From Myxococcota bacterium (GTDB lineage Bacteria > Myxococcota_A > Polyangia > Polyangiales > Houyiibacteriaceae): a stretch of DNA of 15,187 bases. The translations under genes were made by a program, and so were the position numbers. The stretch covers positions 1-15,187 of the forward strand of contig JBCCEA010000061.1 in assembly GCA_039030515.1 (NCBI GenBank), written 5' to 3'. This document shows, in pieces, positions 1 to 15,187 of the stretch (the stretch's first letter is position 1; every line of letters starts with the position of its first letter). The notes under the pieces are model-generated. The model saw nothing but the letters and a program-made list of their open reading frames with translations, was not told the origin of the DNA and did not search any database.

Positions 1-449
1 CGCTTCGAGGGCGCTGGCTCTCTGACATCCCTGGACGGCCGCGGGGGTTGCGACAAATGCACGCCATAGAGCCGCTTACCTTCGATGCTCGTCGCTCAAC
101 GTTCCAAGAAGTACGCCTTCGCTCCTGCGCTTCGAGGGCGCTGGCTCTCTGACATCCCTGGACGGCCGCGGGGGTTGCGACAAATGCACGCCATAGAGCC
201 GCTTACCGTCTCGCGCCTCGTCGTCAGGTACCAATGTGTACCCTCCTCCTCCTCGCCCCAGCGGGCCTCGCTAGACCTGAACGCCCGCTTACCTCCCATG
301 CTCGACGTTCGAAGTAGCAAAACTACTCCTTCACGTCTGCGCGTGCGGGGCGCTGGGCGTTCAAGCCCATCGAGACGCGCTGGTCGGGGGCGCTGGCGCT
401 CTGACATCCCTGAACGGCCGCGGGTGTTTGGGGATGCACGCCATAGAGC
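1..449 (-). repeat. Cluster 1 of ~127-128 nt structured hairpin repeats (REP/REPIN/MITE-like), truncated by the window start
   Basis: Exact 80-bp direct repeat at 1-80 and 128-207 (period 127) and a third diverged copy at 388-449. 84-146 closely matches 2389-2450. 257-384 is an inverted copy of the unit at 2563-2690/2941-3065. Units fold better on the minus strand (G-T wobbles, tandem G.A). Confidence 0.92.
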
Positions 450-538
450 GGGTGAACTCCTGGAGAGGTTTGAATTGTTGCGATAGTCTTGGAGCACCCT
501 TCATTAGAGAGTGGTCTCAGTAACGAGGTGCTCCGGTT

Positions 539-1940: not shown

Positions 1941-2303
1941 TCACCAAGATGCCCTTGCTTCCAGACGACGAATTGCTTCTGCGGCCTGGACTTGCTCCCA
2001 ACGGCACCATCGAGTGCACGGTAGAGGCTCAGCATGCGTCACATACTCCGGCATGGTCTGGTCGACCGGCGACTGTAGACCAGGCTTCGATATCGAAGGC
2101 CGTCTTCGGAGCCTGAGGTTCAGTACCGCCTCAACTGAAGATTCCCGCACGACCCCTCGCCGATGTTCAGACCGATCGTATCGTCGCTCCATCCGCGCTC
2201 GGACGAGAAAACGGGGCGCGAGACCACTCGTCTTCGACGGTTGGCAGGCGGTCATGTGCAGACTGAGGAGTACCCCACACCAAAGTATTTCGTCTCGGAA
2301 CAT
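1941..2303 (-). CDS. hypothetical protein, possible lipoprotein (120 aa)
   Basis: The ORF-track start at 2372 lies inside the repeat. ATG at 2303 gives MFRDEILWCGVLLSLHMTAC, a signal-like N-terminus with a lipobox-like Cys. Co-oriented with the 1098-1892 ORF. Confidence 0.45.
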   Translation of the reverse strand: MFRDEILWCGVLLSLHMTACQPSKTSGLAPRFLVRARMERRYDRSEHRRGVVRESSVEAVLNLRLRRRPSISKPGLQSPVDQTMPEYVTHAEPLPCTRWCRWEQVQAAEAIRRLEARASW

Positions 2304-2348
2304 AGCCTTGTATCGGCACTGCTGTGCTTCCAGTTTCCTCCGTTCTTT

Positions 2349-3078
2349 CCCAGGGGGCCTATGTCGGCCCAAACAGCTGCTGACCGAAGATGCTCGTCGC
2401 TCAACGTACCTAGAGTACGCCTTCGCTCCTGCGCTTCGAGGGCGCTGGCTGTTTGAACCACCCTAGGCCCCCTGGGGATGTGGTTGCTGAGTCGGCCCAA
2501 ACAGCTGCTGACCGCCTTGCGCCTCGTCGTCGTCAGGTACCCACTCGTATCCTCCTCCTCGGCCCAGCACGTCTCGATGGGTTTGAACGGCCAGCGCCCC
2601 GGAAGCACAGGAGCGCAGGAGTAGTTTCGCTACTTCAAGCTCCGAGCATGGGAGGAAAGCAGGCGTTCAGGCCTAGCGAGGCGTGCTGGGGGGCGCTGGC
2701 TGTTTGAACCACCCTAGGCCCCCTGGGGATGTGGTTGCTGAGTCGGCCCAAACAGCTGCTTGCCGCCTTGCGCTTCGTCGTCGTCAGGTACCCACTCGTA
2801 CCCTCCTTCTCGGCCCAGCGGGCCTGGGTTGGTTGAAACAGCGAGCGCCCCGGAAGCGCGGGAGCGCAGGAGTAGTTTCGCTACTTCAAGCTCCGAGCAT
2901 GGGAGGAAAGCAGCTGTTTGGGCCGACATAGGCCCGTTGGAGCGCGTCTCGATGGGTTTGAACGCCTAGCGCCCCGGAAGCACAGGAGCGCAGGCGTATT
3001 AACGCTACTTCGAACGACGAGCACGGGAGGAAAGCAGGCGTTCAGGCCTAGCGAGGCGTGCTGGGGGGCGCTCGCTGT
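2349..3078. repeat. Cluster 2 of ~127-128 nt structured hairpin repeats (six central hairpins, both orientations, nested)
   Basis: Unit 2349-2476 has a perfect 13-bp terminal inverted repeat CCCAGGGGGCCTA/TAGGCCCCCTGGG. A 70-bp exact direct repeat lies at 2440-2509 and 2691-2760. Plus-strand units are at 2563-2690, 2814-2940 and 2941-3065. Confidence 0.95.
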
Positions 3079-3086
3079 GGGCCGGG

Positions 3087-4820
3087 CTACAAATGTAGGG
3101 GGAACTGCCAGCGGCCATGTAGACCTCGGATATAGGCCCCGAGGGATACAATCGACGCAAGAGAGAGTGATCCGAAGAGCAAAGGTCCAACGGATGCAAA
3201 CAAGGAGTGGGGCACTCCGATGAGCAACCAGACAGTGCTGCCTGAGATCACTGTTAGCGATAACGGCACCCACCATTTCCAGCCTTCTGCCAAGGCATCG
3301 ACCCGGAATCGGCACACAATCCACAATGCGATAACCAAAAGCCCACAGCATTTCGCTGCAAAGAAGAAGGCGGCAAGCAAAGTGCCGTTGCCTGGCTCCA
3401 TTGGGACGGCCCATCCTCCAAAACAGAACGCGACCAGAGTCGCCACTAAAGATGCCAGGTAAAATAGCTCAATCGATGTGCAAAATGAATGTCTGCTGCC
3501 GGTCAGTCCTTTTAGTGATGCAAGGGACAGTATAATTTGCACAAAAAAAGCAGGAATTAGGGCAAGAGCCAAAGGGTTTGAGAAGGCGAACCAGGTCCAC
3601 GGATAGATGTCTTGGCCCCGAACAATCGAGTCGAGGTCTAGCGTTCCTTCGAAAGCCAGCAAAACCACCAGTAGAGCCAATACGGGAAGTAACGGCACTG
3701 TAACGCTCAGAATTCGACGGCAAGCTGATCGCGATTCTGATGATTCCGGCAGAAAGATTCTTTGTCCAGCTCTCATCACAATGCTGCTGATCAGAATCAG
3801 CCCTCCGTCTAATCCGCCTGCTAGGATGTATCCGGAATACGGCAACGCTAGAAAGTAAAAGATCAAAAAGCCTAAGATGGAGATCATTATGCCTAGCTGG
3901 TGCAGGGAAGCACTCCAACCTCTAGTTGTCTTCCGAGAGGCCGACGTGTTGCTCCTTATGCTAGCTGAAGACAGAGCTGATCTTTTGGGTAGTTGCCACA
4001 ATGGTCCTGTTGGAAGAAAACAGAACAGCAAGAAGAGTACTGCCCCAACCAAACCATGGCGAATCGTCTTCGAGCGCTCCTGTTTTTCCGCCGAATAGCC
4101 TGGCAAGGGGACTGATAGCTCCATAGTTGCCGGGGCATCGGGAGCTCTAATCTCGAGGATCGCGAATTCCTTACCGGGAACGGCTACGAAGTCTGAAAAC
4201 GAACGGACTTTCACTCTGTCTATGCTCACGATGGTATCGCCGACCGCAGTGCCGGAGTTTGCTGCACGTCCGTTTGGGTTCTGCTCCGCGATGATAAGCC
4301 CCATGCCCGTCGGATGATCCATCATCGTAACTCCCAAGAAATCAGAGATCTCTCGTGCTTGTTGCGTGCGACCAAGCGCTCGCGAAAGGCGACCCGAGGT
4401 CGTGGGAGTGAAGTCAAGAGTCACGTTTTCTAGCGTCCCTGAAACGGTGCCGCGATTGTCGGCCGCAGAAAAGAACACTCGAATGGAGCCGCGAAAAGTC
4501 ACCCGACCCCCGACGGCATTCACTAGTTCGTTTCCAACCGTAAACTGCAAAACCGACTCAGTTTGAGTGCGACCCTCTGCCTGGGCCTGCACAGCCGTCG
4601 GAAGTGCTCCCGGACGCGCTACCTCACCTTCGAAGCTCACGATGGCGCTTTGGCCTACTGGAAATCCCTCTCCCCAGATCTCTGCAGTTTCTTCAGGTCT
4701 AAGATGATCTGTCGATATCTTATGCAGCAATACAAGTGCGGCGTCCTCTGACAGCTCACATGCTACGAGCGAAACGAGGGATGTTAGTGTGAGCAGATGC
4801 AGCGGAGAAGTTCGGTTCAC
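3087..4820 (-). CDS. putative lipoprotein with PDZ domain fused to a degenerate NuoH (complex I subunit 1)-like multi-TM domain
   Basis: Lipobox LVAC (Cys21). PDZ-like segment GLIIAEQNPNGRAANSGTAVGDTIVSIDRVKV. C-terminal hydrophobic domain with NuoH-like motifs GTLDLDSIVRGQ..PWTWFAFSNPL, FGGWAVP, and RFRVDALAEGWKWWVPLSL. Confidence 0.8.
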   Translation of the reverse strand: MNRTSPLHLLTLTSLVSLVACELSEDAALVLLHKISTDHLRPEETAEIWGEGFPVGQSAIVSFEGEVARPGALPTAVQAQAEGRTQTESVLQFTVGNELVNAVGGRVTFRGSIRVFFSAADNRGTVSGTLENVTLDFTPTTSGRLSRALGRTQQAREISDFLGVTMMDHPTGMGLIIAEQNPNGRAANSGTAVGDTIVSIDRVKVRSFSDFVAVPGKEFAILEIRAPDAPATMELSVPLPGYSAEKQERSKTIRHGLVGAVLFLLFCFLPTGPLWQLPKRSALSSASIRSNTSASRKTTRGWSASLHQLGIMISILGFLIFYFLALPYSGYILAGGLDGGLILISSIVMRAGQRIFLPESSESRSACRRILSVTVPLLPVLALLVVLLAFEGTLDLDSIVRGQDIYPWTWFAFSNPLALALIPAFFVQIILSLASLKGLTGSRHSFCTSIELFYLASLVATLVAFCFGGWAVPMEPGNGTLLAAFFFAAKCCGLLVIALWIVCRFRVDALAEGWKWWVPLSLTVISGSTVWLLIGVPHSLFASVGPLLFGSLSLASIVSLGAYIRGLHGRWQFPLHL

Positions 4821-5077: not shown

Positions 5078-5150
5078 GGGGCTGTAGCTCAGCTGGGAGA
5101 GCGTCGCACTGGCAGTGCGAAGGTCAGGGGTTCGATCCCCCTCAGCTCCA
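5078..5150 (+). tRNA. tRNA-Ala (anticodon GGC), CCA not encoded
   Basis: Acceptor stem GGGGCTG/CAGCTCC with the G3:U70 Ala determinant; D arm GCTCAGCTGGGAGAGC; anticodon stem TCGCA/TGCGA with loop CTGGCAG (GGC at 5111-5113); T arm AGGGG-TTCGATC-CCCCT; discriminator A followed by CAA. Confidence 0.98.
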
Positions 5151-5177
5151 CAACTTTCCCTTTAGCAAACGCAATCC

Positions 5178-5215
5178 AAAAAAAACGGGAGACCATGATC
5201 GTTTCATGATCTCCC
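5178..5215 (-). terminator. intrinsic terminator of the rplU-rpmA transcript
   Basis: Minus strand reads GGGAGATCATGA-AACGA-TCATGGTCTCCC (12-bp stem, one U-G) followed by G and T8. Confidence 0.8.
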
Positions 5216-5224
5216 AAGTCTCTA

Positions 5225-5248
5225 ACGTTCGATGTCTTCATCGAACGT
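5225..5248. terminator. perfect 10-bp hairpin between convergent tRNA-Ala and rpmA (possible terminator or processing stem)
   Basis: ACGTTCGATG-TCTT-CATCGAACGT, followed on + by AATTTAT. Confidence 0.45.
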
Positions 5249-5353
5249 AATTTATGATGCAGGAAAGAGAGGCTGTTGCCCTATGGATGCTCCGCGACAG
5301 ACCGAAGATATGACGATTGAAACGGAGCTGCGTTCCCGCGAAACCTCGTCTTC

Positions 5354-5686
5354 TTAGTTCGAGGCGCTTTCGGTCACCGATTCATTGGAAGCCGAATCGT
5401 CTAGGTCCGTCACAATAGTGGCGGCATCTACGAGAAGCGGTTCAACACTGACGATTTTCCGCGTTCGCCCCTTGTGTCCAAATTTGACTATACCGTCAAT
5501 GCGAGCCCACAAAGTATAGTCTTTACCGGTTCCAACATTGTCTCCGGCGTGGACGCTCGATCCAACCTGCCGTATCAATATGTTGCCGGCACGAACTTTT
5601 TGTCCGCCAAATACTTTGACCCCGCGACGTTGTGCGTTGGAGTCTCGGCCGTTTCGAGACGACCCTTGCCCTTTCTTATGTGCCAC
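5354..5686 (-). CDS. rpmA: 50S ribosomal protein L27 (bL27) with acidic C-terminal extension
   Basis: [29 protein letters not shown]...GNILIRQ.G...[14 protein letters not shown] is the L27 signature; GTG start; directly downstream of rplU. Confidence 0.99.
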
Positions 5687-5697
5687 TGTTGCCTCGT

Positions 5698-6006
5698 CTA
5701 GGCGCTCACGCCTGTGATCTTAAGTTCTGTATAAGGCTGTCGATGACCGGCTTTCCGTCGGTAGTTTTTTCGGCGTCGCATTTTGAACACGATAATTTTC
5801 TTGGCTCGGTTCTGAGCGACGATTTCAGCTTGAACCTTCGCTCCAGGTACGGTTGGAGCACCGACCAGCACCTTCTCGCCAGTTACCATGAGAACGTCTT
5901 CGATCTCTATTCGGTCGCCAACGCCGCCTTTGAGTCGTTCCACCCGAAGAACGCTGCCTTCTTCAACCACGTACTGTTTACCGCCGGTTCTGATCACTGC
6001 CTGCAT
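5698..6006 (-). CDS. rplU: 50S ribosomal protein L21 (bL21)
   Basis: [12 protein letters not shown]...[28 protein letters not shown]; start placed at ATG 6006 to match the family N-terminus. Confidence 0.99.
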
Positions 6007-6037
6007 GTTTTTTCCATCACCGCGCGAGCGGCCGGCT

Positions 6038-6065
6038 AACATACTAGAAAGACAAACGCCTGCAA
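6038..6065 (-). promoter_or_regulatory. possible sigma70-type promoter of rplU-rpmA
   Basis: Minus strand TTGCAG, 16 bp spacer, TATGTT, ending ~30 bp upstream of the rplU ATG. Confidence 0.3.
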
Positions 6066-6140: not shown

Positions 6141-6893
6141 GTGTCTAAGCGCGTCAAAACGGTCACTCACGAGACGATCGTGCGACGACCCCGCAGCGAA
6201 CGTAAAATCCTGGCGCCAGAGTTTGAGGCGCTAGCCCGCGGTGAACAACAGCCGTTCAGACATCGACGACCTCGTCTGCGGGATACGAGAACCGTCGCCT
6301 TGATACCGGGAGTTGCGAATCGTGATGCGCGCAGCGTGTGTGATGCGAGGACTCGAGAACTTCAGTTCTTGCTTCGTAGGATGAGCGAATCGGCGGAGCA
6401 GGACGAGTCCCACTACACGAGTGGTTTGCCTACTGAGAGCCTCACCAATGAGGTGGAAGGCGCTACGAACTTGGATTCAGACGCTAGCTTAGAAGCGGAC
6501 GAAGCCAGCATCGAATTGACAAAAAAACTCGCTGAGGCAGCTCAGCTTAGGCTTTGGCGAGGGAGAAGCGTCACCAGTTTTGAGTCGTACGCGGAGGCAA
6601 TGCTCCAGCTCGATTCCCAACACGCTAACGAGCTTCTCGCCGCTGGTCGACAAGCTTTGTCGATGGAAGAGTCCGCTGCGTCCGATGAGGCCATCGCGGT
6701 AGCGATTCGTACCGAAGCAGCCGCTCTTGAGTCCGGATTAGAGCTGCGGGTTCAAATCCAAGGTTCGTTTGGTGATGAGCGCATTGTCCTCGATGTTCAT
6801 GTTTCGTCTGCCTCTGAAACATTGCGCGCCATAGGCCGTCGGCTCACCCCGCTGGCCGCGGACCATGAAAGACAAACTCGAAACCAAGACTAA
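6141..6893 (+). CDS. hypothetical protein (250 aa)
   Basis: Long ORF filling the gap between rplU and the kinase, with a basic N-terminus, acidic linker and helical C-terminal part. No family recognised. Confidence 0.8.
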   Translation: MSKRVKTVTHETIVRRPRSERKILAPEFEALARGEQQPFRHRRPRLRDTRTVALIPGVANRDARSVCDARTRELQFLLRRMSESAEQDESHYTSGLPTESLTNEVEGATNLDSDASLEADEASIELTKKLAEAAQLRLWRGRSVTSFESYAEAMLQLDSQHANELLAAGRQALSMEESAASDEAIAVAIRTEAAALESGLELRVQIQGSFGDERIVLDVHVSSASETLRAIGRRLTPLAADHERQTRNQD

Positions 6894-6946
6894 CCGAATC
6901 AGCCTCGAGATCGATTCGATCTCCATAGTGGTTTGATGCCGATGGG

Positions 6947-9889
6947 TTAGTGACGCCCCAGGGCCATCTTTGCAGCGCGGTGATCGGGGTTTGCGTTTAG
7001 TGCCTTGGAGAAGGACTCCCTGGCCTCGCGCAGACGCCCATCGAACTGCAGCGCACGACCGTGGGCAACGTGGTAGTCCGCGTTTTGAGGTTGAAGCGCA
7101 ACTGCCTGTGCATAGGCGTCAACGGCTCGTCCCGCTTTACCTCTCTGGAGATAGCAAGCTCCAAGTCCCATGAAACCACCGGCAAATGATGGATCTAGTT
7201 CGGTGAGCTGCTGATACAAGACCGCGGCGTTTGAGTAGCGGCCGGATCGAAACGCGACCAGGGCTTTTCGATGGGTCCGCAGTGCTCTCATGCGCTGTTC
7301 GGGATCACTTTCGACTTGCGCCACGTTACTCGCACCGCGTTCGGCCGGGGTGGTGGTTGCAACGGATTCAAGACGTTCTGTTTCTTGTCCGCTTTGGACT
7401 GCCGATGCCGATTCTGTTTTTGGCGCAGCAGCACGCGTTGTTTTCCTTGCGTCCACCTCTTGTGAACCCACCGGAGCCAAAGATCCCGACAGCTTAGTAG
7501 AATCTAGACTGCTACGTCGCTTGAGCGGAACCTCGCGAGTGGCGGCTGCGAATACTTCGGGGTCGATACGAAGACGATTCCGACCAGGTTGCCGCATCGC
7601 GAAATAAACAATCGCAGCACCGAGTATCGGCCCGATCAAAGCGAGTGCCGCGACCATCAAAAACGCCGATTGAGGAACATACTTGGTTCGAACTCGAGCA
7701 GAGTCGGTCTTTTTTGTGCCGGCCTTCGGCGTCGAAGCGCCTTCTCGAGCCTGAGTAACCGAGGGGCTTGGAGTTTGAGTATTGAGAGATACCGAGCTTG
7801 CCTGTGTCGAACTCACTCGCTCTGCGGACGTGTGCGCCGAAGCGATTTCGGGCTCTACAAGTACCGGCAACGCGGTGGTGAGCTTGTCTTCTCCGGGCTC
7901 TGAACTGGACAAACGCTGACTCGGACGGGACGATCTTGAGTCTTGCGGCTCGGATATCGATGCGTGTTCGGATGCCGGTGATGCGCTCGAAGTGTCGCGT
8001 TCTGTCCCCGACGCCGGCGTCGTAGCTGATGGCCCTGCTTTTACTGGTTCGGCGGTGTGCATGTTTCGCGGCACTGGGGTCACCACGGTTGGTTCGTCCA
8101 AAATCAGAGAGTCGTCTATCCCTGCAGGGTCGAAGCTGTCAGACTGCAGCAGTTGGATGTCTTCTGATGCCGGCTCTGAGAGGTTGTCGAGCCCCGTGCT
8201 ATCGTCTCCCACGCGAGCATCCAAATGTTCCCGATCATCCAAATTTTTTGGTTCACCTGCGTGTTCTGAACGGTCTTTTGTCAGGACTGGAGCGCTTACC
8301 TTCCGGTCGCGGGATGTTGGGTGATCGTCAGATGCTGAGCTGCTCGGCGTTGGTTGGTCTAGTTCGGAACGAGCACGAACCGGGCCCTCGAGCGACAGAC
8401 TTTGAGCCTCGAGCGGCAGACTTTGAGTCTCGATCGGGGGAGTGATGTGGGTCGTCGCTCCAGAGCTTTCGAGGTCTGACTTTGTCGAACCCTTTAGATC
8501 TTGGTAGGACGTTAGATCTTCGTAAGACGGTGCGGCTTCAGCAATAAGAGATGACTCTTTCTCCGGTTCTGAAACGGGCATCTCAGGCGTGGATGATCCC
8601 GGAACTGGTGGGACCGTAGAGCGTGATTTTGCGAGCGGCGGGGGAGTCAAGGATTTCGGCTTGGTCGGCACTGAAAGGCTGGAGCCAGGCGGTGCGGTGG
8701 ACCGAGACTTGGTGAGCGGCGGGGGAGTCGATGATTTCGACTTAGCGGGCAAAGGAGGCGGAGAGGAAGATTGCGGTGCCGCTAGAGATTTTGGCCCATT
8801 TATCGTGGGCCCATTCATAGACTGAGGCGTAACGGAGGAACGTGATTTGGCCGGCAGAGGTGGTGGGGTAGTTCGGCGCTCGACCGCTCCTCCGCCTTGA
8901 CTGTGCACATCCAACTGGCTGGAACGTGAATCCACTTCCATCCATGGATCGTAGAAAGCGGTGATGATTCGAGCTCGAGTCAACTCATTCACCCATGGCT
9001 CAATGAGTCGGTAGGCATGCTCGGCAGACTCGGGACGCTCCTGAGGGTTCTTCGCCAGACAGCGTGAAATCAGTTCGACAAGCCCTTCGGAAATACCTTT
9101 TTCAAGTCGAGGGGGGGACTTTGCCAAGTGGGCTTGAACGACCTGTTGTTCTGGTGTCGTTCCAAAGGGTGGGGCGCCCTGGATGGCTTCGTACAGTAGG
9201 CATGCGAGCGAATAGAGATCGCTGGCAGATCCCTCGAGTTCTCCGCGCAGTTTTTCGGGAGCAACGTAGGGCACGGTTCCCCATGCAGTGACCGAACGGC
9301 CTGTCCCCATCGGTCCGGCGATGCCGGGGTCGATGAGTGCCACATCGCCGAGGTCTTTTGGATCACGTAAAATCACGTGCTGCGGCTTAAGATCCCGATG
9401 CAAAAGGCCCTCGCGATGCAGCTGACCCAGAGCCGCAAGCAGTCCCGCTGCGAGATCGACCGCCTCTTCGGGGTTGAGGGGTGACTCGAGAAGTCGCTGC
9501 GTCAGGCACATCCCTTCGATCCAAGGACGGAAGCACCACAGACGCTTGTTCTTCGCACGATCGGTGAACGCGCCGCACTCCGAGGGAAACGCAACCCAAT
9601 GACTGGTTCGGGTAGATTGGTGGCTCAGTTCCCGTTGAACGCGCTGTCGAACGGCGTCGGTCGCTGCTTCGTAATCCGGAATTACTTTGAGAACTCCGCT
9701 TTCTCCCGACCGCTCAGAGTACGCTCGATACAGGCATCCGCCGGCATGTAGACCTTGGGTGCCGGAAGCAGGTGGCGAATCAGTCGAGACTCGAGCGTCG
9801 ATTTTGAAGCGTTCGAGAATGGAAGGAGGTAGCTCCCATTTTTGCTGACTCTGCGCCATTTCCGGTACTTGAGATGATTCCGAGTTCAT
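6947..9889 (-). CDS. Hanks-type Ser/Thr protein kinase(-like) with Pro/Ser-rich linker, one TM helix and C-terminal TPR domain
   Basis: VLKV, HRDLKPQHV, IDPGI, GTVPYVAPE, SDLYSLACLLYE..G.PPF, CLAKNPQERP; TM segment AFLMVAALALIGPILGAAIVYFAM; TPR motifs (LYQQLTELDPSFAGGFMGLG, YAQAVALQPQNADYHVAHG, FSKALNANPDH). Confidence 0.95.
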   Translation of the reverse strand: MNSESSQVPEMAQSQQKWELPPSILERFKIDARVSTDSPPASGTQGLHAGGCLYRAYSERSGESGVLKVIPDYEAATDAVRQRVQRELSHQSTRTSHWVAFPSECGAFTDRAKNKRLWCFRPWIEGMCLTQRLLESPLNPEEAVDLAAGLLAALGQLHREGLLHRDLKPQHVILRDPKDLGDVALIDPGIAGPMGTGRSVTAWGTVPYVAPEKLRGELEGSASDLYSLACLLYEAIQGAPPFGTTPEQQVVQAHLAKSPPRLEKGISEGLVELISRCLAKNPQERPESAEHAYRLIEPWVNELTRARIITAFYDPWMEVDSRSSQLDVHSQGGGAVERRTTPPPLPAKSRSSVTPQSMNGPTINGPKSLAAPQSSSPPPLPAKSKSSTPPPLTKSRSTAPPGSSLSVPTKPKSLTPPPLAKSRSTVPPVPGSSTPEMPVSEPEKESSLIAEAAPSYEDLTSYQDLKGSTKSDLESSGATTHITPPIETQSLPLEAQSLSLEGPVRARSELDQPTPSSSASDDHPTSRDRKVSAPVLTKDRSEHAGEPKNLDDREHLDARVGDDSTGLDNLSEPASEDIQLLQSDSFDPAGIDDSLILDEPTVVTPVPRNMHTAEPVKAGPSATTPASGTERDTSSASPASEHASISEPQDSRSSRPSQRLSSSEPGEDKLTTALPVLVEPEIASAHTSAERVSSTQASSVSLNTQTPSPSVTQAREGASTPKAGTKKTDSARVRTKYVPQSAFLMVAALALIGPILGAAIVYFAMRQPGRNRLRIDPEVFAAATREVPLKRRSSLDSTKLSGSLAPVGSQEVDARKTTRAAAPKTESASAVQSGQETERLESVATTTPAERGASNVAQVESDPEQRMRALRTHRKALVAFRSGRYSNAAVLYQQLTELDPSFAGGFMGLGACYLQRGKAGRAVDAYAQAVALQPQNADYHVAHGRALQFDGRLREARESFSKALNANPDHRAAKMALGRH

Positions 9890-12399: not shown

Positions 12400-12486
12400 C
12401 CTGTCGCCAACTGCCTGTCGCCAACTGCCTGTCGCCAACTGCCTGTCGTCAACTACCTGTCGTCAACTACCTGTCGTCAACTACCT
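12400..12486. repeat. 6 x 14-bp tandem repeat: (CCTGTCGCCAACTG)3 (CCTGTCGTCAACTA)3
   Basis: Units start at 12400, 12414, 12428, 12442, 12456 and 12470, plus a partial CCT. Confidence 0.97.
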
Positions 12487-12652
12487 TGCGATTACTTCGA
12501 TGCTATTTTCCCGCCGCGGCGCGCGTCAACGTCCTCTTTGGCCGGATTCAAACGCGCTCCTCTAGCCCAAAGAATATCCGATCATGCCTTGGCCCCGTGG
12601 GTACCTCCAAACATTGCTGGACGTCGAGGCAATTGCGTGGTTACCCAGTTGC

Positions 12653-14189: not shown

Positions 14190-15041
14190 ATGATATCTTC
14201 GGCAAACGCTTCGAGTGCAACCGCCGAGTCCAAGAATCTCGGTTCTCAACTGTCTCGGCAGTTTGGTTCTCCAACGTACCAGCCTCCGGTACTTCCGAAA
14301 ATTGCGCTTGAAGTCCATGCACTTACCCATCGAAGCGACATCACTTTTAGGGAGGTTGTGGACACGCTTGCGATGGACCCATTGCTTGCCGGTGGCGTTC
14401 TAAGCCGGGCTCAGTCGGCGATCTTTACCGCGCGTATTCCGCCTCGCACTTTACTCGAAGCGGTTCGGCGATTGGGGCTGCGTACCACTCGTGATATCGT
14501 TTGGGAGATAGCGCTCCGCATGCGCGTGTTTGTTGCACCAGGATACGTCGAGCCAGTGGCAGCGTTGACTCGTCACTCGGCCATCACCGCCCATCTCTGC
14601 CGCACCGTATGCGCTCGAGCAGGTCTAGAGATGCCGCATGCGTTTCTTTGCGGACTCCTGCACAACGTCGGATTGCTTGCCAGTCTGGTGCTCGTCACGG
14701 AAATGTTCGACTTCTCCAACCTACCTGCCGTCACAGATATCGCGACGGGACTCGAGCCTCTGCATGAGGAGGCTGGCGGTCAGTTGGCGCGAATCTGGGG
14801 ACTAGGGGAAGAGATACAGCGAGGCGTCGAGCAACATCACCACCCAAGAAGCCTGGAGGGCTATTTGGTTTGCCTTGCCTCCACGATCGCTGCCGAGGAA
14901 TGCGGTACAGAGGAACTGCCTCGTATCGAAGAGCACGACACCGACTTAATCGACGCTGCCCGAGTGGCCCTCGGACTTTCCGATGCAGATTTAGAGGCGC
15001 TTCGGATGGATGCTGTTCATATCGGAACCGTGGTTCGCTAA
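14190..15041 (+). CDS. HDOD domain-containing signal transduction protein
   Basis: PPVLPKIALEV, DPLLAGGVLSRAQSA, AVRRLG, HS..TA, AFLCGLLHNVG, HEEAG..LARIWGL, HHHP: HDOD pattern. Confidence 0.93.
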   Translation: MISSANASSATAESKNLGSQLSRQFGSPTYQPPVLPKIALEVHALTHRSDITFREVVDTLAMDPLLAGGVLSRAQSAIFTARIPPRTLLEAVRRLGLRTTRDIVWEIALRMRVFVAPGYVEPVAALTRHSAITAHLCRTVCARAGLEMPHAFLCGLLHNVGLLASLVLVTEMFDFSNLPAVTDIATGLEPLHEEAGGQLARIWGLGEEIQRGVEQHHHPRSLEGYLVCLASTIAAEECGTEELPRIEEHDTDLIDAARVALGLSDADLEALRMDAVHIGTVVR

Positions 15042-15187
15042 CCCAGCGGGCCTATGTCGGCCCAAACAGCTGCTTTCCTCCTCGCTCGTCGTCGTCAGGT
15101 ACCTTAAGTACCCTCGTCCTCCTCGCCACGGGGGCGCTAGCTGTTTGAACCAACCTAGACCCGCTGGGGGGTGGTAGTTGAGTCGGC
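15042..15187 (-). repeat. Cluster 3 of the structured hairpin repeat family (one full unit 15042-15168 plus start of the next), truncated by the window end
   Basis: Terminal inverted repeat CCCAGCGGG/CCCGCTGGG, inner CAAACAGC/GCTGTTTG, central GGTAC-CTTAA-GTACC. Begins at the base after the HDOD TAA stop. 15169-15187 resembles the linker at 2477-2496. Confidence 0.93.

Follow-up and report, generated by a model that had tools for sequence, protein, structure and literature searches.

We found that the window, a stretch of 15,187 nucleotides that forms the entire contig C61 of its genome (G000), carries copies of a non-coding repeat of 127 nt that is real, under selection and phylum-wide. It lies behind stop codons in a single orientation. 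We think it likely (with a probability of roughly 0.6) to be of the ERIC kind, a mobile but non-autonomous element, and predict that it is moved in trans by an enzyme binding its folded single strand. Here F denotes the folding strand of the unit; G-, L- and C-numbers refer to the genomes, loci and G000 contigs of the analysis, and g3 is a genus label. Copies were scored with two covariance models of the repeat, R1, built on 31 diverse copies, and R2, a broader model built on 76 copies, and with R3, a covariance model of ERIC run over 91 kb of myxobacterial loci (25 loci); the E-values of all three are rough.

Ten central hairpins are present in the window (at 101, 228, 314, 2406, 2537, 2621, 2788, 2872, 2996 and 15099), and R1 placed units at 42-173, 255-385, 2347-2477, 2562-2692, 2813-2943 and 15040-15169. 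Bases 1-80 are identical to 128-207 at 80/80 positions, a period of 127. The ten hairpins, the five units of 127-128 nt and the period at 1-207 that a sequence-only reading had described were thus all recovered, from the sequence and with R1. The hairpin clusters that it had seen as arrays are also there, but they are nests rather than plain arrays, with four units sitting inside others; the array at 2349-3078 is a nest with a compound period of 251 nt. The features, with the basis of each call in brackets, are:

1-451, minus strand: array 1, truncated by the contig start, of C-type units repeating every 127 nt, with a nested unit inside one of them
42-173, minus strand: full unit with C-type arms, within the region (1-207) where the 127 period is seen (R1, 88 bits)
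257-384, minus strand: full unit with B-type arms, nested in the same orientation directly after the AGCGCCCC of its host (R1, junction classing)
about 174-256 and 385-451, minus strand: the two parts of the host unit around the nested unit 257-384
2349-2476, minus strand: full unit with A-type arms, the complete 3' end of array 2 (folds, boundaries, R1)
2477-2562, minus strand: 3' two-thirds of a host unit (sequence, junction class)
2563-2690, plus strand: full unit with B-type arms, nested inverted after the host's AGCGCCCC (R1, junction classing)
2691-2727, minus strand: 5' arm and AGCGCCCC motif of the host that holds 2563-2690 (sequence)
2728-2813, minus strand: 3' portion of a second host (88% alike at a compound period of 251 nt, shared with 2477-2727)
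2814-2940, plus strand: full unit with A-type arms, nested inverted in the second host (R1, junction classing)
2941-3065, plus strand: unit with B-type arms, head to tail with 2814-2940 (profile, junction classing)
3066-3078, minus strand: truncated 5' remnant of the second host unit (sequence)
15042-15168, minus strand: full unit with A-type arms (R1, boundaries)
15169-15187, minus strand: junction plus the beginning of the 3' arm of the neighbouring unit, ended by the contig end (repeats, junction classing)

An unpaired C/A-rich junction (about 2477-2490) links the host unit at 2477-2562 head to tail with the unit at 2349. The 3' end of unit 2941-3065 lies about 20 nt from the stop of an opposite-strand ORF (3087-4820), and that of unit 15042-15168 abuts the TAA of an HDOD gene (14190-15041, plus strand). 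The five named units fold on one strand, with RNA z-scores of -7.7 to -9.6 as against -3.9 to -5.9 for the other strand, and the fold of the better strand was equalled by 0/200 shuffles; DNA parameters were also run. In a public DNA sequencing run (X1), depth was 20-26 over the unique DNA of the window and 376-1243 over the repeat bins, indicating that the repeat is no assembly artefact. An Rfam search of the window returned a tRNA as its single match, the repeat reaching the threshold of no Rfam family. The 12 window ORFs scanned in Pfam matched a kinase, a phosphorylase, an HDOD protein, a GT87-like protein and a PDZ domain, or had no match; none is a mobility enzyme, in agreement with the earlier statement that no mobilising enzyme is adjacent.

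The remainder of the window holds two short tandem repeats, one of three 19-nt copies (956-1019) that spans the stop codon of an ORF without a Pfam match (539-970), and one of about six 14-nt copies in the intergenic region ahead of the nucleoside phosphorylase gene (12400-12497). At 5078-6042 the tRNA has as neighbours two ORFs whose translations resemble ribosomal proteins L27 and L21. The kinase (6947-9889) is of the Ser/Thr type and 980 aa in length; it has TPRs at its C-terminus and a long linker of low complexity.

On F, the unit runs from a 30-nt arm through an AGCG motif, a ladder of helices, a tip and a GnAAGC motif to a second 30-nt arm. It is a rod, made of an outer stem of roughly 30 bp that is free in sequence and a conserved core of roughly 67 nt, in which short helices are split by purine-rich asymmetric loops. 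The full units of G000 (n=80) measure 124-126 nt from CAG to CTG, and 127-128 nt with the outer pairs. The GTAS-loop-STAC core proposed earlier was right as to the GTA/TAC tip and too narrow at the fourth position, where 154 copies had C-G in 85, G-C in 40, T-A in 23 and no pair in 6 (complementary in 148/154). Since T/A is also allowed there, the invariant is GTA-x-loop-x'-TAC; across the class it shrinks to TA-x-loop-x'-TA. The outer stem had been given as CCCAG...CTGGG, which describes G000, where units end in CCAG...CTGG without TA ends; in other genomes the ends differ. Stems of at least 45 bp that end in TA or CTAG occur in some lineages, and such ends are confined to some of the lineages other than G000. 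Indeed, arms are wholly different between subfamilies and between genomes, and terminal letters are not conserved, while the core is kept. Several copies from genus g3 (L238, L239, L221-L224 and L237) carry extra sequence in the terminal loop or on the 3' side of the core.

The pairing itself is maintained by compensating changes. In alignment A1, 26 of 33 pairs showed double changes and 90% of cells were paired, a covariation reached by 0/500 shuffles, with slid controls 34-39% paired; the structure was derived from the same alignment, and kin share changes. Wobble pairs were distributed unequally between the strands: among the inner 14 stem pairs of those of the 76 copies that have both anchor motifs, F had G-T 74 times and A-C 12 times, so that selection acts on F only. 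The fold of the repeat is a selected single-strand structure, as the sequence-only reading had supposed.

We then considered how far the repeat extends. G000 (85% complete) gave 220 matches with an iterated profile, 122 of them nearly full length, in 87 clusters, many at contig ends. Of its 80 full units, 13 match a copy elsewhere in the genome at 98% identity or more (median 95.5%), which speaks for mobility. R1 found the repeat in 54/88 genomes of the taxonomic family and 38/151 of the class, and R2 in 37/151 of the phylum, tallies that count G000 itself. Copy number ranged from 0 to >200 among relatives; because 22-38 candidates were scored per genome, such numbers are lower bounds. The repeat is therefore by no means confined to the locus in which it was first noticed. 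Loci L038-L055 come from Myxococcota, Polyangiales or Polyangia. A search by sequence pattern badly under-reports the repeat in comparison with the covariance model: it matched 5/401 genomes, two of them chance-like, with 6 control matches. Pattern scans gave 19 loci in a collection of genome contigs, of which 2 (L037, L052) are not the repeat, and 2 loci in metagenomes, of which 1 (L056) is not. Three patterns gave 0 repeat loci in viral contigs, and neither a window unit nor L210, used as BLAST queries, matched any plasmid. A literature search, with most subscription journals outside its coverage, found no published account of this myxobacterial repeat family.

Arrays of the repeat are polar, the 3' ends of F being exact and the 5' ends ragged. 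The 3' boundaries lay at unit position 118 or beyond in 62/68 cases, whereas 5' boundaries lay at position 6 or before in 7/43; about eight of the 3' boundaries come from units nested in inverted orientation, and copies whose arms are unique come out too short in this count. The exact end also has a preferred neighbour. In G000 an opposite-strand stop codon lay within 15 nt of the 3' end of F in 29/63 cases and of the 5' end in 6/40, as compared with 4.9% of 19,394 random intergenic positions. The stop codon was TAA in 17 of these 29, as against 579/3093 ORFs. The same placement was seen in other genomes, at 46/66 3' ends and 16/66 5' ends (counts given without a computed null). All stop-codon and ORF statistics use ORF calls made in the analysis itself. 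Within units, nested inserts directly follow AGCGCCCC; 15 of them are inverted and 6 share the orientation of the host (pattern classing of 84 full units, with 19 given no class). The orientation of F showed no bias with respect to GC skew.

At three loci, judged by eye, the 3' end of F faces the 3' end region of a tRNA on the other strand. Copies at L115, L120 and L125 adjoin tRNA genes, and at L120 and L125 the 3' end of F meets the opposite-strand tRNA 3' end (also by eye). At L045, L050 and L057 recA is followed by a copy at a distance of 0-2 genes downstream; there is none around the recA of G000. L050 also holds, at 1988-4383, three ORFs without a Pfam match that give the impression of type III secretion translocon proteins. 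At L213 (1470-1620, G418) a long variant lies in frame inside a gene resembling that for an error-prone DNA polymerase III alpha subunit, and a homologue of this polymerase-like gene at L240 (G041) holds an in-frame copy at another site (6848-6980).

The histories of individual loci show gain at a fixed site. Genomes of genus g3 differ at the site behind nusG, which some have filled and others empty (L299, L304, L306, L313 and L314 being examples of the latter). In L297 and L326 it is filled twice, the newer copy lying between the stop codon and an older remnant. This order shows that copies are gained at a fixed site, and it accounts for the polarity of arrays without an RNA step. No clear target duplication was seen at nusG. 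The copy at L328 (G027) lacks its core through a deletion, and a site with a single CTAG in L337 is flanked by CTAG on either side in L329. Among the joints listed from four DNA runs there was no exact empty allele of any G000 site, so that boundaries and target duplication are not fixed. Other palindromic repeats, several with GGGGAC-type ends, stand directly behind the nusG stop in L303, L310, L311, L317 and L323.

A second g3 site is the end of a ribonucleotide reductase gene, assigned to class II on its domains. Of the 28 best loci taken from other genomes, 17 have a copy lying across the stop codon of this gene. The arms of these copies have diverged and yet remain paired, the 5' arm tracking changes in the last codon of the gene. 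For these kept copies, host selection fits as well as repeated landing.

ERIC/IRU, which the sequence-only reading had not brought up, is the closest known kind to this repeat. ERIC (also IRU or RU-1; Enterobacterales and Vibrio) is likewise a 127-bp imperfect-palindrome rod (PMC2229807, PMC3184786, PMC10969869). It has GA-rich asymmetric loops, a TA-x-loop-x'-TA tip and one strand that folds better; it is intergenic, lies near gene 3' ends and has an orientation that matters; all of these apply to the repeat. ERIC copies that we took from viral contigs and plasmid records fold into a similar rod on one strand, and in 4/10 copies from plasmid records the 3' end of F lies within 2 nt of an opposite-strand stop codon. 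Internal insertion is a further likeness, seen in ERIC copy L252 and in the g3 copies with inserts.

The covariance models matched reciprocally and in register on F. R2 aligned over its full length with 9/10 intact ERIC copies, 4 of them at E <0.01, as compared with 11 bits reached by an unrelated hairpin. R3, in turn, gave 17 matches in the 91 kb of myxobacterial loci, of which 14 are repeat copies on F, and none in 12/25 loci; its best match scored 37.6 bits, the opposite strand of that copy scored 19 bits, and long stems alone earn up to 19 bits. A sequence-only profile separated poorly from structure-keeping shuffles, with 1/10 ERIC copies beating all 200 and 2/19 myxobacterial copies beating all 100. 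The two also differ. There is no BLAST-level likeness and R1 gave no score on ERIC copies; the repeat has the core motifs AGCG and GnAAGC, longer and nested arrays, and ends that are free in sequence. As the TA ends of ERIC are missing in G000, we do not file the repeat as ERIC. The model matches and shared behaviour suggest a mobile distant relative, which works like ERIC and is probably related to it. The parts of the reviews available to us name no mover for ERIC and report a likeness to IS ends only for RUP (PMC2229807).

A relative was already in print, which confirms the mention, in the sequence-only reading, of multicopy GTAC-hairpin repeats in other deltaproteobacterial genomes. Geobacter metallireducens has 24 'predicted short RNA elements' (Gmet_R1001-R1024) of 111-116 nt, which were taken as regulatory RNA (PMC2700814). 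They are multicopy and intergenic, and their other strand has, by eye and unscored, the same core motifs and the GTAG-5-nt-loop-CTAC tip seen in L200, L201 and L229. In contrast to what we describe here, the portion of that account available to us gives no structure model, orientation rule or mobility. Its supplement lists further Geobacter repeats with a possible bearing on novelty, and the novelty of the myxobacterial repeat is limited by this published relative.

The earlier reading had advised looking for a mobility gene flanked by the repeat or co-occurring with it; none was found among RAYT/Y1 transposases, reverse transcriptases, IS630, IS91 and IS110 elements and tyrosine recombinases as tested. 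G000 (85% complete, and searched with 8,000 bases withheld) has no match to Y1_Tnp, Y2_Tnp or RVT_1, and G002, which is 100% complete and has 12 copies, none to Y1_Tnp, DDE_3, DDE_Tnp_1 or IS110. This bears directly on the proposal that the repeat is a REPIN/BIME moved by a RAYT-type HUH transposase (TnpA-REP; PMC3337134). Like those elements (PMC6006769), the repeat forms intergenic mosaics of palindromes near gene ends, here as arrays after stop codons, with a GTA tag and one-strand folding, and it is a target of an IS110-type element, as REP is of IS621 (PMC11208160). Moreover, Y1_Tnp occurs in 40/54 repeat-positive and 13/34 repeat-negative genomes (hand counts). Within g3, however, the hand counts are 34/44 and 7/11, and a copy lies within 1.5 kb of 0/30 Y1 genes, so that a RAYT flanked by the repeat was not seen. 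REP is defined by a GTAG/GTGG tag 0-2 nt 5' of a short hairpin's foot (PMC6006769), whereas the tag of our repeat is at the tip and its unit is 127 nt as against 20-40; we regard movement by a RAYT as highly improbable. A retro-element would match the polarity, the head-to-tail arrays and the G-U-type wobble: F would be an RNA, SINE-like or retron-derived, copied by reverse transcriptase from its 3' end to give exact 3' and truncated 5' ends. The paired ends, free in sequence, and the NAGC at the inner end of the 5' arm are placed as in the msr-msd of retrons, whose priming G occurs in TAGC, CAGC and GAGC contexts (PMC6868368). Nevertheless, RVT_1 is found in 15/54 repeat-positive and 16/34 repeat-negative genomes (hand count), no copy lies near any of 29 reverse transcriptase genes (0/29 within 1.5 kb), F is antisense to the upstream gene so that read-through would not make it, and serial insertion at one site accounts for the polarity without reverse transcription. 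This leaves a retro-element improbable, and an origin from retrons in particular was dropped, there being no RVT_1 in G000, no co-occurrence and no match upstream of the 29 genes.

Two further explanations also stand as rivals. A classical MITE would be cut at terminal inverted repeats by a DDE transposase of the IS630 or IS5 type, which duplicates TA or CTAG, its orientation bias arising from later selection. Several lineages do have TA or CTAG on both sides, L329 has the two CTAGs mentioned above as against one in L337, and in reviews ERIC is placed among the MITEs, with ends in TA (PMC2229807). Ends of the repeat, however, are not conserved within G000 or between genomes, whereas the core is, G000 copies lack TA ends, and one-strand wobble is not predicted by symmetric ends. 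Some long variants have terminal extensions of 20-30 bp that we take to look like IS ends; terminal repeats conserved and shared with a transposase gene of the same genome, the classical feature of a DDE MITE, were not seen. Among five multi-copy genomes, DDE_3 was present in 0, DDE_Tnp_1 in 3 and IS110 in 4 (one marginal), and no copies lie near 6 DDE_Tnp_1 loci. A MITE of this kind is thus unlikely, although less so than the other alternatives. The repeat might instead be a cis element kept by the host, a 3'-end structure to which a host protein binds (in mRNA decay, in termination or for DNA topology) and which spreads through the host's own recombination, without a mover dedicated to it. 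The orthologous copies in 17 g3 genomes that keep their pairing to the last codon of the gene agree with this, as do the effect of ERIC on mRNA stability, which depends on orientation, in Yersinia (PMC2229807, PMC10969869), and the fact that no mobile enzyme among the families tested tracks the repeat. The selected strand, however, is the one absent from mRNA, copies enter other copies at a fixed site and even a reading frame (L213), and copy number varies among relatives over the range given above; we consider this explanation about as improbable as a retro-element.

Other candidates for the mover were tried and dropped. An IS91/ISCR-type rolling-circle enzyme was set aside after Y2_Tnp gave no match in G000 and was found in 1/4 genomes as a degenerate match with no copy nearby, in a test whose control set gave no signal. 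A shared neighbour as the mover was set aside, since the genes flanking the copies are housekeeping genes. Features of integron attC sites were not seen, the ends having no conserved core site and the arrays no genes, and no copies lie near the 5 tyrosine recombinases of G000.

We therefore return to the reading of the repeat as a non-autonomous ERIC-kind element. Counting against it are the missing mover, the poor sequence-only likeness to ERIC, the kept ribonucleotide reductase copies, the lack of an exact empty allele in G000 and the absence of a GC-skew bias. The enzyme acting in trans would recognise the folded core of F and not the terminal sequence, and would act at the base of the stem, at a fixed distance set by the stem. 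The joining site would be C-T-R-R, usually a stop codon, exposed at gene ends. If the enzyme joins the repeat at the gene end, each new copy would land ahead of the last, the one site being used again and again. Slippage, gene conversion and a wearing away of the distal end would then build the polar arrays, and the first two would shuffle arms and cores. A strand-transfer reaction on single-stranded DNA is the leading candidate for the chemistry, at somewhat less than even odds over all readings taken together; it fits best because F is absent from read-through mRNA and no reverse transcriptase tracks the repeat. More speculatively, ERIC may belong, as a single branch, to a superfamily of mobile hairpins that spans phyla and has no transposase of its own kind; a conserved enzyme, probably host-encoded, would read the folded core of one strand, measure a 30-bp stem of any sequence, home to gene 3' ends (stop codons and tRNA ends) and stack copies as a polar array.

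In this repeat the features that are read (the fold of the core, a single strand and the length of the stem) are distinct from those that vary freely (all of the terminal sequence), and this speaks against a transposase that simply uses terminal repeats. Testable rules follow as well, namely one orientation, landing at stop codons and a fixed internal site. Its relatives have culturable carriers, Geobacter and, for ERIC, E. coli K-12, which open the question to the bench.

In addition to its own kind, the repeat receives an insertion sequence. A unit is interrupted, at a single position within its GnAAGC motif, by an IS110-family element 1,288 bp long (G000:C3:161433-162720, L296), and ends of this element were also found at C4 (about 590), C58 and C21. 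As the mover of the repeat it was dropped, since it lands at a site other than that of nested units and G002 has none; IS110 is a parasite of the repeat, not its mover. The left non-coding end of the element carries nine letters identical to the left flank of its target, the arrangement expected of a bridge-RNA guide (PMC11208160), and this stretch may act as one. Landing in a conserved motif, the IS110 element and the repeat form a natural recombinase-target pair of the bridge-RNA type.
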